The translations under genes and the position numbers were made by a program. 64,000 bases of DNA, taken from assembly GCA_965205905.1 (NCBI GenBank), contig CBDBHZ010000013.1:209571-273570 (forward strand), given 5' to 3'. This document shows, in pieces, positions 37,851 to 41,756 of the stretch; position 1 is the stretch's first letter, and each line of letters starts with the position of its first letter. The notes below the pieces were generated by a model. That model saw only the letters and a list, made by a program, of their open reading frames with translations. It did no database searches and was not told where the DNA came from. This stretch comes from Alphaproteobacteria bacterium (GTDB lineage Bacteria > Pseudomonadota > Alphaproteobacteria > JABAAW01 > JAHZMA01).

Positions 37851-40800
37851 ATGAAAAACTTTATTTTACTCGCCATACTATCATTCACCCTAACGGCTTG
37901 CACTGGCAGTTCTGACGGTGGTGATACCCCTGCCGCCAATGCCAACACCAATCCGATTATTACTGAAACGCCGATGGATATACCGATGGAAACGCCCCCG
38001 CCAAATTTGGAAAACCGTAACGGTCTAACCAGCTTTGAAGATACCGAACGTAATGAAAAAGAGGTTATCCTCAACATCGATTCGCTGGTGCAAATCACCA
38101 AGCCTACTGCCGCTAACGTTAACATCTTAAACCAGAATATCAGCGGTGGTCTTGTTGATTTTGCTTATGATGAAAGCGGTGATTTTGTTGCCGAAAGCAT
38201 TAAAGTCAAGCTTAGTAATATCACCTATCAGCTTGCCGATGATGCCCCTGTTACAGGTAACACGAACGTCTATCAAGGCACTAGCACGCCAACCTGCGAG
38301 CCTGAAGGTTGCGATGCCCCTACTGAACTGCGTTTCACCAGAAATACTAATTTCGGTGACGATACCACTCCAAATTATATGGTGGCTTTGCAATGGAAAG
38401 TGGAACATGATGATTATGATGCGTTCGGCTTTGGCGTTGCGGGTTTTGATACTGTGGCTGCTTCTATTCAAAAAACTGGTGGCACTAGCTTCACGGGCAA
38501 AGGTTGGGGCAATTACAGCGATAGCACTGTTGGCGGTGAAACTGCTAATCAAAACATTTTCTTTAACATCGAAGCCATAGTTGATTTTGCCAACCGCAAT
38601 GTAACACTGGCAAGCAACAGCAGTTGCGATTCTACTTATGATTGCGCCGTTAATTCTGGTCCAGATCGCCGTCATCTCAATTTCACGGGCAATCTAACCT
38701 ATAATGCAGGAACGAATCAGCTGAGTTTCGCCAATGTTACCACCACAGATAACGCGCTTACAGGCTCGGCTTCTGCCAAATTTTACGGCATAGATGATGC
38801 CACCACCACAAATATTAACGAAAACGCCATCGAATTCGGCGGCACATTCAATCTCAGAAACGCAACCTTAGGCTATGTCGGCTATTTCGGCGCAAATCGC
38901 GGTTATGTTATTAAGGCAACGGGTGATGATGTTGTAACGACTACTGACGGCACTGCCCCCGAATTGAACGTAAACACCCTAGCAAACTTTACCGATTCGA
39001 CTAAAAATGGCACAACGGGCAATGCTTTATCTGCCAATTTCGTGCAAATAACCAGAAATTCTGTGGATAAGTCTATCAATAACGATATTTTCACCGATGG
39101 CGTGGTCGTGTTTGATTATAACGGTAGCAATTTTGCAACCTCAGGCACACCGCTCACTCTCTATTTGGGTGAGAGGAAATATTGGGCAACAACGTCAAAT
39201 GCTTCAAATGTTAGCACGCGTATTAATTCTAATACGAGCACAAATATGAGCAACGATAGCGACGTTCCTGAAAATCTTTATTTCAGCATAGATGATTTTG
39301 GCTTTACCGCAGATTATATGGCGCTCGCTTACTATAATGTGGTGGGGGCAGGTTATGCTAGTGAAGGCTTTGGCATTGCGGGTTTTGCAACTGCAACCCC
39401 GCTCACCTCTGGCACAAACATTTTCACGGGCGCAGGTTGGGGGACTTATTCTGATAATGATGCCAATATCGACACGAAATTTACTATTAACGCCACGGTT
39501 AATTTCGGCTTACGCACAGTAGTGTTAGAAAGCACAGGCACTTGCGTCTCTACCGATTGCACAGGCTTAGCGCGTGCTGACCTTAATTTCACTGGCACGC
39601 TAGTATATATTGATAACATCAACGCGCTTGCTAGCACAGAAAATGGCATCACCACCGCAGGCGGTGATTATATGGTTGGGTCTGATACATTCACCACCGC
39701 CTCACTTTCAGGCTATGCAACTGCCAAATTCTACGGGCCACAATCCAACGAACTCGGCGGCACATTCAGCCTAACAAACCCAACCGCAGGCTATGTCGGA
39801 TTCTTCGGCGCATCACCTTATAGCATTGTTGTTCCCGCAGATGCAGTTGTTACCGCTGAGACGATTGAAGGCGTTAATTTGGTAGGAATAGATAATTCAG
39901 TGGGATTTACAGGCTTTAACGATTCTACGCGTGGCACTTCAGGAAAAACCAGTAATAACCTCAATATCGATAATTTAGTCCGAATCACTGATGATAGTAG
40001 CAATAAAGCCATCACGCTTGATTCCGTAACAAACGCTCTTACCTATTTTACATATGAGAGTGGGGGTGGAGCTGATTTTTACGATAGTTCAAGTGGTGGC
40101 ACATTTGCATTATATCTTGAGAACACACGCTATAGTTCAACAAGTGCTGATGGAGATGCGAACACACTCACAGCAGGTGGGGTTATAGGTAACACCAACA
40201 TCAACAACTTCGAACTCAATCGTGGCAGTAATGCCGCTAATGATATATTCGGCTTTACCGCTGATTACCTCGCGCTGATAAGTTGGGATGAAATCACTTC
40301 GGATGCGACCACATACGGCTATGGCATTACAGGCTATGAAACGGTTAGCATTGCCACCAAACTTGCCACCAAATTTGTTGGTAAAGGGCATGGGCGTTAC
40401 CAAAATGTTGATGGCACGAAATCATCAACTTTGTTTGATACCACCATCGATGTTGATTTCGTGAATAAAACACTGGATTTCAAAGCTGAAAACACATGTA
40501 TTTCAGGCTCTGATTGTTTAGGTGATAATTTACTGACGCATCTTGATTTTGACGGTGAGCAATTAACTTATGATAATACTGTCAATAATCTTATCATCAC
40601 AATCGCCACCGCAGATGATGTGCTTACAGGCACAGCCGATGCCAAATTTTACGGTGCAAGCAGTAACGAAATAGGTGGCACATTCAAACTGAGTAATAAT
40701 CAGGTGGCTTATGGTGGCGCATTCGGCACGCATCGCTATAGCTTTAAGAACACAACAACTGCCACCGATACCACCATCGATGGTGATACTGTGCCATCGC

Positions 40801-41756
40801 TCAACAAACAGGGTTTGGTAAGTTGGGAAGATTCAAACCGCACATACCCACAAAACGGTAACCTACTCAGCAAACAAGGTGTTGTTTTAGAAGTGCCAAC
40901 CATCAGGTATGTAACAGCCAATAAGGTGAACAGAACAGTGATTACCGAGACTATCAGCGGTGCTGTCATCGACTATGATTATAATGAAACTGGTAATACC
41001 GCCGCAAAAAATGCAATAGATATTAATGGCGATGATGGCTTTGCATTCTATTTTGGTGATACAAAAATTCAATTCAAAAATGGGTCGAATAACAGCATTG
41101 ATTATGACAGTGTGCAAGTTACTGAGTCAAATCCGATATCCAGTAATAAAACTGATTTACCCCATCAATTTAGGATGACTACAAGTGGTAACAACCCTGC
41201 CATAAACACAATAGAGTCAGACTATATGGCAATGTTGGTGTGGGAAACACAAGGAACTGATTATGACAGCATTGGTTTTGGTGTTACTGGTTTTGATACG
41301 GCTTTTGGTGATATTCCTACAGGCGCAGGTAATAATGTCACATTCACAGGCAAAGGGCGCGGTGACTATAGAAATATCGATGCTGCTCCTATTACAGAGC
41401 TTAGGTTTTTTGAAGTGGAGGCGGTTGTTAAATTTGATGCCAAAACAGTGGATGTAACAACCACCGCGACATGCCTATATACTATTGCTAGCATCTGTGG
41501 CAATGATGGCGGTGCCACCGATTATGGATATAGTGCAAGCCATTTGGATATGACGGGGCAGTTAAGTTACACCAATGCAAATAAATTGACTGGCACATTC
41601 ACCACCGCAGGCGATACTGATAATGCAACATTATCAGGCGATGCCGAAGCCAGATTTTACGGCACAGGTGCTGATGTGGCAAGTGAATTAGGCGGCACAT
41701 TCTCGGTAATCAATGATAGCGCAAGCTTCATAGGCTTCTTCGGCGTGAAAGAATAA
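37851..41756 (+). CDS. giant surface lipoprotein (1301 aa) with four TbpB/fHbp-like lobes
   Basis: Lipobox LTAC|T. Four repeats each end in the ...AKFYG...E(L/I)GGTF.L.N...GYVG(F/Y)FGA barrel signature. Paralog of 12332..15223. Confidence 0.65.
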   Translation: MKNFILLAILSFTLTACTGSSDGGDTPAANANTNPIITETPMDIPMETPPPNLENRNGLTSFEDTERNEKEVILNIDSLVQITKPTAANVNILNQNISGGLVDFAYDESGDFVAESIKVKLSNITYQLADDAPVTGNTNVYQGTSTPTCEPEGCDAPTELRFTRNTNFGDDTTPNYMVALQWKVEHDDYDAFGFGVAGFDTVAASIQKTGGTSFTGKGWGNYSDSTVGGETANQNIFFNIEAIVDFANRNVTLASNSSCDSTYDCAVNSGPDRRHLNFTGNLTYNAGTNQLSFANVTTTDNALTGSASAKFYGIDDATTTNINENAIEFGGTFNLRNATLGYVGYFGANRGYVIKATGDDVVTTTDGTAPELNVNTLANFTDSTKNGTTGNALSANFVQITRNSVDKSINNDIFTDGVVVFDYNGSNFATSGTPLTLYLGERKYWATTSNASNVSTRINSNTSTNMSNDSDVPENLYFSIDDFGFTADYMALAYYNVVGAGYASEGFGIAGFATATPLTSGTNIFTGAGWGTYSDNDANIDTKFTINATVNFGLRTVVLESTGTCVSTDCTGLARADLNFTGTLVYIDNINALASTENGITTAGGDYMVGSDTFTTASLSGYATAKFYGPQSNELGGTFSLTNPTAGYVGFFGASPYSIVVPADAVVTAETIEGVNLVGIDNSVGFTGFNDSTRGTSGKTSNNLNIDNLVRITDDSSNKAITLDSVTNALTYFTYESGGGADFYDSSSGGTFALYLENTRYSSTSADGDANTLTAGGVIGNTNINNFELNRGSNAANDIFGFTADYLALISWDEITSDATTYGYGITGYETVSIATKLATKFVGKGHGRYQNVDGTKSSTLFDTTIDVDFVNKTLDFKAENTCISGSDCLGDNLLTHLDFDGEQLTYDNTVNNLIITIATADDVLTGTADAKFYGASSNEIGGTFKLSNNQVAYGGAFGTHRYSFKNTTTATDTTIDGDTVPSLNKQGLVSWEDSNRTYPQNGNLLSKQGVVLEVPTIRYVTANKVNRTVITETISGAVIDYDYNETGNTAAKNAIDINGDDGFAFYFGDTKIQFKNGSNNSIDYDSVQVTESNPISSNKTDLPHQFRMTTSGNNPAINTIESDYMAMLVWETQGTDYDSIGFGVTGFDTAFGDIPTGAGNNVTFTGKGRGDYRNIDAAPITELRFFEVEAVVKFDAKTVDVTTTATCLYTIASICGNDGGATDYGYSASHLDMTGQLSYTNANKLTGTFTTAGDTDNATLSGDAEARFYGTGADVASELGGTFSVINDSASFIGFFGVKE

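Follow-up and report, generated by a model that had tools for sequence, protein, structure and literature searches.

A single gene in a 64,000-nucleotide stretch of alphaproteobacterial DNA (contig CBDBHZ010000013.1; the whole stretch is hereafter "the window") encodes a lipoprotein of the TbpB family that is built from four homologous lobes in tandem. The gene (37851..41756, forward strand, stop codon included) is intact and specifies 1301 amino acids (aa), as read from the list of open reading frames (ORFs) and the translation, and a protein of identical sequence, P0001, is held in a public collection. Each lobe is a complete handle-plus-barrel unit of the TbpB type. We lean toward the view that the whole is a modular, surface-displayed, ligand-binding lipoprotein; its architecture was computed, and its export and ligand binding are what we infer from analogous proteins.

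The original prediction of an intact four-lobed lipoprotein gene is borne out by the uninterrupted ORF, by the lipobox, and by the detection of four lobes with a dedicated hidden Markov model (the lobe HMM). The translation opens with a signal peptide, MKNFILLAILSFTLTA, followed directly by cysteine (37851..37901, forward strand); the lipobox is LTAC, with Cys17 as the lipobox cysteine and Thr at +2. The N-terminal lipobox cysteine by which membership in the TbpB_B_D superfamily is judged is therefore present (MKNFILLAILSFTLTA-C17). A low-complexity tether rich in Pro, Thr and Asn comes next (aa 18-50, 37902..38000, forward strand, beginning TGSSDGGDTPAANANTNPIITETPMDIPMETPPP). This tether (TETPMDIPMETPPP) is Pro/Thr-rich, short and devoid of a regular repeat, and a similar one is seen in the homologues P0002 and P0003. 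A candidate sigma-70-like promoter, TTTACA-17 nt-TATAGT (37787..37815, forward strand), agrees with the consensus at 10 of 12 positions in a consensus scan and is known from that match alone. Direct reading of the sequence reveals a Shine-Dalgarno element, AGGAG (37839..37843, forward strand), 7 nt ahead of the ATG. The terminator that had been predicted is also in place: an intrinsic terminator (41785..41820, forward strand; stem AAAGGCGCG...CGCGCCTTT, then a T-run) was found as inverted repeat I3, by a terminator scan and in the sequence, and its GC-rich hairpin (41785-41814) lies 29 nt beyond the stop codon and is followed by TTTTTTGT. Given this promoter-like site, Shine-Dalgarno element and terminator of its own, the gene looks monocistronic.

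The lobe HMM finds four full-length lobes of about 300 aa each, at aa 36-351, 354-657, 659-963 and 966-1301. With the tether set apart, and all on the forward strand, we assign lobe 1, a handle and an eight-stranded barrel, to aa 51-352 (38001..38906; lobe HMM, whose envelope is aa 36-351, and alignment), lobe 2 to aa 353-658 (38907..39824; lobe HMM), lobe 3 to aa 659-964 (39825..40742; lobe HMM), and lobe 4 to aa 965-1301 (40743..41753; lobe HMM and alignment). The last of these closes with a C-terminal barrel ending in ELGGTFSVINDSASFIGFFGVKE; the terminal residues, FFGVKE, resemble the G-x-F-G-A-K ends of most relatives. The claimed homology of the lobes survives pairwise alignment. In a MAFFT alignment their identities are 29-36%, and lobe-against-lobe BLASTP comparisons give E-values of 3e-20 to 5e-32, far past chance. 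Conservation is uneven within the lobe: among the four, the handle (the N-terminal half) averages 24% identity and the barrel (the C-terminal half) 40%. In an alignment of 24 lobes, every invariant column falls in the barrel, in the motifs FTGxGxGxY, AKFYG, ELGGTF and G-F. The doubling of a two-lobe unit (AB-AB) was considered and rejected, as neither lobes 1 and 3 (32% identical) nor lobes 2 and 4 (35% identical) are closer than the remaining pairs; the four-lobed protein therefore did not arise by the recent doubling of a two-lobed one. At the DNA level, the longest tract common to the lobes is at most about 70 nt. The low identity, together with the closest match of lobes 1, 2 and 4 to lobes at the same positions in homologues, supports the earlier proposal that the lobe duplications are old.

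Several lines of evidence place the lobes in the TbpB fold. The Pfam family TbpB_B_D (PF01298) matches in three stretches and scores 53.6 bits (E 4e-14), its gathering cut-off being 26. Among the sequences of the PDB, a profile built from the 24 aligned lobes retrieves TbpB (4qq1, E 0.011) and LbpB (7n88, E 0.057) and nothing else; as these matches are marginal, the family is remote from anything whose structure has been solved. An AlphaFold2 model of lobe 3, made with the lobe alignment, is all-beta, with a predicted local distance difference test score (pLDDT) of 87 and a predicted template-modelling score (pTM) of 0.88. Foldseek ranks the C- and N-lobes of TbpB as the best matches of this model, then LbpB, fHbp, hemophilin and HphA (E 6e-9 to 1e-5 from TbpB to HphA) and the NHBA barrel; the lobe model's E-values against 7rea, 8gm3, 6om5 and the fHbp entries are 2e-6 to 3e-5. 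Its comparison with the TbpB C-lobe 5kkx yields E 5.6e-9 and a target-normalised template-modelling (TM) score of 0.62, and the approximately 280 aligned columns span both handle and barrel. By this placement with TbpB lobes across handle and barrel, each lobe is a complete unit of the TbpB type.

The likeness to TbpB does not extend to the way in which neighbouring lobes are predicted to pack. A two-lobe AlphaFold2 model of lobes 3 and 4 (pLDDT 76.7, pTM 0.70) follows full-length TbpB colinearly over about 580 columns (E 3e-13), yet superposes poorly on it, with TM scores of 0.25-0.31 and a root-mean-square deviation of about 22 Å. Since the inter-lobe packing of TbpB is not reproduced by the model, TbpB is a guide to the lobes and not to the whole protein. 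The overall shape of the four-lobed protein may be an extended rod.

In the arrangement that we favor, the N-terminal lipid anchor and a Pro/Thr-rich tether of about 35 residues would hold the four tandem lobes at the outer membrane. A Slam/type-11 secretion protein, with its gene at another place in the genome, would probably then flip the protein onto the cell surface. In this picture the barrels would be modules for scaffolding and export, and each of the four divergent handles may offer a different surface for binding a ligand from the host or the environment. By gaining, losing and exchanging lobes through recombination, the lineage could vary this surface. Export to the surface is proposed because the characterised TbpB_B_D lipoproteins (TbpB, LbpB, fHbp and hemophilin/HphA) are analogous. 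Further, the C-terminal TbpBBD-type eight-stranded barrel that serves Slam cargo as its targeting domain is found here as the barrel of lobe 4, with its FFGVKE end.

Comparison with known systems sharpens this proposal. TbpB and LbpB, from the Neisseriaceae and Pasteurellaceae, are bilobed surface lipoproteins that bind transferrin and lactoferrin, respectively. The four-lobed protein shares with them a lipid anchor and flexible tether, the handle and eight-stranded barrel of PF01298, and a C-terminus of the G-x-F-G-A-K type, and the top structural hits for the lobe model are TbpB lobes. It differs in having four equivalent full-length lobes where they have differentiated N- and C-lobes, in its modelled inter-lobe geometry, and in the marginal sequence similarity noted above. 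Their operon partner is the TonB-dependent receptor TbpA or LbpA, whereas the neighbors here are a hydrolase gene and tRNA-Asp, and the organism is an invertebrate-associated alphaproteobacterium. Hemophilin/HphA and fHbp are single-lobe cargo of Slam or the type-11 secretion system (T11SS); they bind haem or factor H, and their genes lie beside a Slam/T11SS gene. They have the same handle-plus-barrel unit, four of which are concatenated in the present protein. The closest parallels in architecture are the "Sphingomonas surface protein" and "Psychrobacter surface protein", predicted T11SS cargo with two to three handle-barrel pairs whose genes lie beside cluster 1 T11SS genes (Grossman et al. 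2025, PMC12282271). These too are lipoproteins with more than one handle-barrel pair, and one of the two groups is alphaproteobacterial. Their N-terminal region has Pro-Thr (or PTD) repeats, of which the short, irregular Pro/Thr-rich tether seen here is a possible counterpart. The differences, drawn from a comparison by description only, are the four pairs present here (and up to about 14 in relatives) and the lack of a nearby T11SS gene.

A number of observations weigh against surface display by a Slam-like route. A scan of every ORF of 250 aa or more in the window (26 ORFs in 64 kb) uncovered no Slam/DUF560 gene, and none of these ORFs encodes a TonB-dependent receptor. Neither kind of gene is found beside family members on three other contigs (L003, L004 and L005). 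The four-lobed protein does not match the NCBIfam model NF041636 (slam_lipo), and a three-lobed paralogue in the window reaches only 47.4 bits against that model's cut-off of 80. The departure of the two-lobe model from the packing of TbpB belongs on the same side of the ledger.

These points leave room for a different location. The protein might remain on the periplasmic side of the outer membrane as a lipoprotein with a structural or envelope role, or be secreted by some other route; in either case it would not be Slam/T11SS cargo. The failure to find a Slam gene in any neighborhood examined and the unmatched slam_lipo model speak for this possibility. We nonetheless regard it as rather unlikely. 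The characterised proteins with this lobe fold are all surface-exposed or secreted (PMC7857515, PMC12282271), and exposed proteins typically show a long disordered tether, high allelic mosaicism and variable gene content, as is the case here. Further, a Slam gene and its cargo gene are often not adjacent. T11SS outer-membrane protein genes of marine cluster 3 are only rarely found together with the C-terminal barrel domain, in 8 of 145 loci (PMC12282271).

A still less probable alternative, and one that we doubt, is a nutrient or metal receptor of the TbpB/LbpB/HpuA type, induced under metal limitation, that passes iron or haem to a TonB-dependent transporter. The domain family is held in common with TbpB, LbpB and hemophilin, and a weak Fur-box-like palindrome (TTATAGTAATTATCA, with two mismatches to TGATAATNATTATCA) occupies positions 12219-12233, about 100 nt upstream of the three-lobed paralogue. 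The window has a surplus of Fur-box-like matches, and this surplus stems mostly from AT-rich coding repeats at 12469-12948. Against such a receptor stand the missing TonB-dependent receptor genes, both in the window and in the three other family neighborhoods, and the failure of a Fur-box scan to find any such site upstream of 37851, which also counts against a strict TbpB assignment. Sequence similarity to TbpB is marginal (E 0.011), at least five paralogues with six to nine lobes in what is presumably one genome are hard to square with a single ligand, and the hosts of the nearest relatives are sponges. The original prediction of an antigenically variable surface receptor, to be sought under metal-limited expression, thus fares poorly: no TonB-dependent receptor, Slam/DUF560 gene or Fur box lies near, and the lineage is invertebrate-associated. 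Neither iron nor transferrin is indicated as the ligand. Because there is no nearby DUF560 gene or TonB-dependent receptor, slam_lipo is unmatched and a Fur box is missing, the protein is not filed here as TbpB or as an iron receptor. We file it instead as a TbpB_B_D-family lipoprotein that, by analogy, probably works like a Slam-dependent surface lipoprotein.

That the four-lobe ORF is an artefact, either of repeat collapse or expansion during assembly or of a decaying gene, is highly improbable: a frameshifted paralogue in the same window and fragmented family genes in a related contig at 3x coverage might suggest it, but lobes only about 30% identical as protein and without a common DNA tract longer than about 70 nt make mis-assembly between them implausible, the ORF runs uninterrupted for 3.9 kb with a Shine-Dalgarno element, lipobox and terminator, and four-lobed homologues (1273 and 1333 aa) are present in other assemblies.

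The homologues of the four-lobed lipoprotein are markedly mosaic. P0002, P0003 and P0004, all four-lobed, share the N-terminal signal, the tether and the C-terminal motif. Lobe 2 is the conserved lobe, being 78% identical to lobe 2 of P0002 and reaching 90-95% in windows of 40 residues. For lobes 1, 3 and 4, identity to the lobe at the same position is only 33-36%. Lobes 1, 2 and 4 nevertheless find their best matches in the same-position lobes of homologues, and the four-lobe layout therefore predates these genomes; lobe 3 is without a clear same-position counterpart among them. The first 360 or so residues of P0002 and P0003 agree throughout (100% identity), after which identity falls to 28-55%, a break that requires recombination. 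Taken with the lower identity of the handles (about 24%) than of the barrels (about 40%), these mosaic homologues make diversifying selection on the lobes plausible. Recent gene conversion among the lobes or paralogues was considered separately and rejected. A blastn comparison of the window with itself gives matches of 49-68 nt only, at stretches that code for conserved motifs; without long identical tracts, there is no sign of recent intragenomic conversion.

Lobe number was predicted to vary among paralogues, and it does so both in the window and across the family. A three-lobed lipoprotein of 963 aa (12332..15223, forward strand; lobe HMM and alignment) has lobes that share 44-47% identity with one another and 31-38% with the lobes of the four-lobed protein. 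The paralogue that had been only tentatively credited with two lobes (58783..60843, reverse strand) indeed has two by the lobe HMM applied to three reading frames, and a lipobox, though it is disrupted by at least three frame changes, being split into four ORF fragments over three reading frames. These frame changes mark it as a pseudogene or as a stretch with sequence or assembly errors; a pseudogene is the likely case. The disrupted gene adjoins a tandem duplication (58467-58791) of an intergenic repeat described below, and a small toxin-antitoxin-like gene pair (57960-58457) lies near it. A further family member, P0042 (1598 aa), is probably on the same contig as P0001.

Beyond the window, a word-indexed search returned seven relatives of the four-lobed protein, and an exhaustive search with the lobe profile returned 1258 proteins at E <= 1e-3, 154 of them at E <= 1e-30. 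Lobes were counted with the lobe HMM in the 158 closest sequences. One lobe was found in 30 of these proteins, two in 28, three in 31, four in 26, five in 14, six in nine, seven in eight, eight in three, nine in one, ten in four and 14 in two. The four-lobed protein thus belongs to a little-studied, lineage-specific expansion, in which its lobe number is mid-range and not exceptional. The largest member, P0010, has 4,491 aa. Of the 158 sequences, 101 match a loose lipobox pattern, and the TbpB-like G-x-F-G-A-K motif closes most of the longest members listed. All of the named many-lobed relatives are lipoproteins annotated as "transferrin-binding protein-like solute binding protein" and come from metagenome-assembled genomes (MAGs) of uncultured "Alphaproteobacteria bacterium". 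A block of consecutive accessions (MCH9852xxx) supplies the above-mentioned set of paralogues from presumably one genome, their six to nine lobes having been counted by HMM. On L005, an ENA contig with about 3x coverage, positions 1-13514 contain four to five consecutive TbpB_B_D genes or fragments (992, 1164, 958, 1030 and 152 aa), which are a tandem array of genes or else the pieces of a single giant gene split by sequencing errors. Other collections were less productive. A full-length-alignment search of the contigs of GTDB species representatives returned no relative, and neither the source genome nor its four-lobed homologues are therefore among them; the same kind of search of metagenome contigs returned nothing. 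A search of metagenome contigs with the flanking hydrolase gave generic hydrolases only (22-43% identity) and no syntenic locus, and a homologous-protein search with the lobe alignment gave no match.

We offer, tentatively, a broader reading of this family. The TbpB lobe may be a concatenable module that sponge-associated Alphaproteobacteria of this lineage string together like beads, 1 to about 14 at a time, into surface lipoproteins of up to 4,491 aa. Recombination would add, remove and swap lobes and so vary a surface that faces host or phage, uncoupled from TonB receptors and from an adjacent Slam. The four-lobed gene would then be one allele in this shuffling of lobes, and the REP-like, GIY-YIG-associated repeat pair 3' of it might have a part in cassette mobility.

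The immediate surroundings of the gene are as originally described. Upstream is an alpha/beta-hydrolase lipoprotein gene (36906..37745, forward strand; Pfam Abhydrolase_1, E 5e-22) with the lipobox LIGC evident in its sequence, and downstream is tRNA-Asp (GTC) on the reverse strand (42201..42277; ARAGORN, Rfam and blastn against L001). L001, the closest genome available, is the MAG JAHZMA01, whose HldE is 91% identical to that of the window, with flanking DNA at 84-86%; the HldE of a second alphaproteobacterial MAG, L002, is 73% identical. In blastn comparisons, synteny with L001 spans hldE and tRNA-Asp and ends exactly at the 3' end of the tRNA. On the far side, L001 carries a type III restriction-modification system and a gene with Sel1 repeats, and no gene there is TbpB-like. 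In L002, genes for glutamine/glutamate metabolism follow tRNA-Asp, and the four-lobed gene is absent. The genes 3' of this tRNA therefore differ in each of three related genomes (window 42201, L001 5568, L002 11678), those of the window being the four-lobed lipoprotein and hydrolase genes. From sequence, the site looks like a hot spot for rearrangement or insertion.

Between the terminator and tRNA-Asp, a 230-bp composite inverted repeat had been predicted and called a scar. The repeat is real but is not one element; its arms are two opposed copies of a small palindrome, GGATTCCG-(loop)-CGGAATG, one per strand, for which 0 matches are expected by chance. The left arm (41845..41879, reverse strand) is a short-form unit resembling repetitive extragenic palindromic (REP) sequences, with the core GGATTCCGACTTTCGTCGGAATG at 41852-41874. 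The right arm (41997..42054, forward strand; core 42002-42047) is a long form with an internal hairpin. Folded as single-stranded DNA, positions 41830-42070 reach -43.1 kcal/mol, against -25.8 +/- 3.7 for shuffled sequences (z = -4.7; 0 of 200 shuffles as good). A homologous palindromic unit occurs in L001 (7862-7917), where the hairpin is different and internally compensated. On L004, two such units (15758-15780 and 16137-16179) form an inverted pair, oriented as in the window, right after the stop codon and terminator of a six-lobed homologue, and this pair (15758-16179) brackets a 95-aa GIY-YIG gene. Past the right arm, the window and L004 also share a box, GTACCATCGGCAAGGCG...AGCCTTGCTAACT (66% identity, E 5e-5). 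Rfam detects only tRNAs in the window and has no significant match in the 3' flank of the four-lobed gene.

Because the L004 pair brackets a GIY-YIG gene, a lost insert is plausible in the window, and it is reasonable to view the window pair as an empty or decayed repeat-bracketed GIY-YIG cassette. The 117 nt that it encloses contain no ORF, and tblastn with the L004 GIY-YIG protein detected no remnant between the window palindromes. The pair could equally be an arrangement of REP units like that of bacterial interspersed mosaic elements (BIMEs). The pairs in L004 and the window may represent a small mobile GIY-YIG cassette tied to genes of this family.

The window is otherwise ordinary chromosome, with leuB, metZ, putA, hldE, gltD and asd. 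According to a 2026 paper (PMC13393909), the JAHZMA01 genome was obtained from Vazella/Haliclona sponges and represents an uncultured lineage near the order JABSOH01. The lineage is an invertebrate-associated alphaproteobacterium and not a vertebrate pathogen. A dispersed intergenic repeat of about 80-160 bp (75-95% identity) occurs at no fewer than 11 intergenic sites in the 64 kb: 27482-27640, 30885-31010, 32497-32694, 33343-33610, 36662-36822, 42429-42598, 49331-49495, 53183-53433, 54288-54538, 58467-58805 and 60955-61110. It is also found in the related L001 (5757-5936, 7956-8132 and 15043-15341). Inverted copies bracket the segment that holds the hydrolase gene, the four-lobed gene and tRNA-Asp. 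The repeat has no match in Rfam and looks like a lineage-specific family of REP elements or miniature inverted-repeat transposable elements (MITEs).

Five tandem paralogous genes (168-226 aa; 29584-33328, forward strand) are 70-80% identical in DNA and have a low GC content (0.34-0.39). Several combine a hydrophobic segment at the N-terminus with the ankyrin-like motif LIAQGANPN. The group is preceded by a Lys-rich ORF of 559 aa (27905-29584) that matches no family. These could be eukaryote-like or effector-type symbiont genes; ankyrin-like tandem genes and dense intergenic repeats are consistent with a host-associated lifestyle. Elsewhere in the window, two tandem Amidohydro_2 paralogues (46719-47810 and 48242-49306, forward strand; about 70% DNA identity) form a pair that is kept in L001 and L002, and in an ORF at 23092-23943 (forward strand) the C-terminal portion of an N6/N4 DNA methylase is joined to a T5orf172/MUG113 (GIY-YIG-like) domain.

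To our knowledge, nearly all TbpB-type lobes described so far belong to vertebrate pathogens, where they form receptors and vaccine antigens of one or two lobes. Full-text literature searches found no paper on proteins with at least four such lobes, on the range of 1-14 lobes, on an expansion in sponge symbionts or on mosaic alleles; the coverage of these searches was incomplete, and the result is therefore an absence of evidence only. Two elements are already known, namely the NCBI label "transferrin-binding protein-like" for relatives and the Sphingomonas and Psychrobacter lipoproteins with their two to three pairs (PMC12282271). The family-level picture is more interesting than the individual gene. 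A module of TbpB is concatenated fourfold here and up to about 14-fold in relatives, in invertebrate symbionts whose small genomes each carry several genes of this kind, with strong mosaicism among alleles. Display of these proteins at the surface, if it occurs, would pose the question of how a Slam/T11SS-type translocon copes with cargo that holds many internal targeting barrels, and of what handles like those of TbpB recognise where iron piracy is not involved. This family also provides a natural set of lobe variants for studying the diversification of a vaccine-relevant fold.

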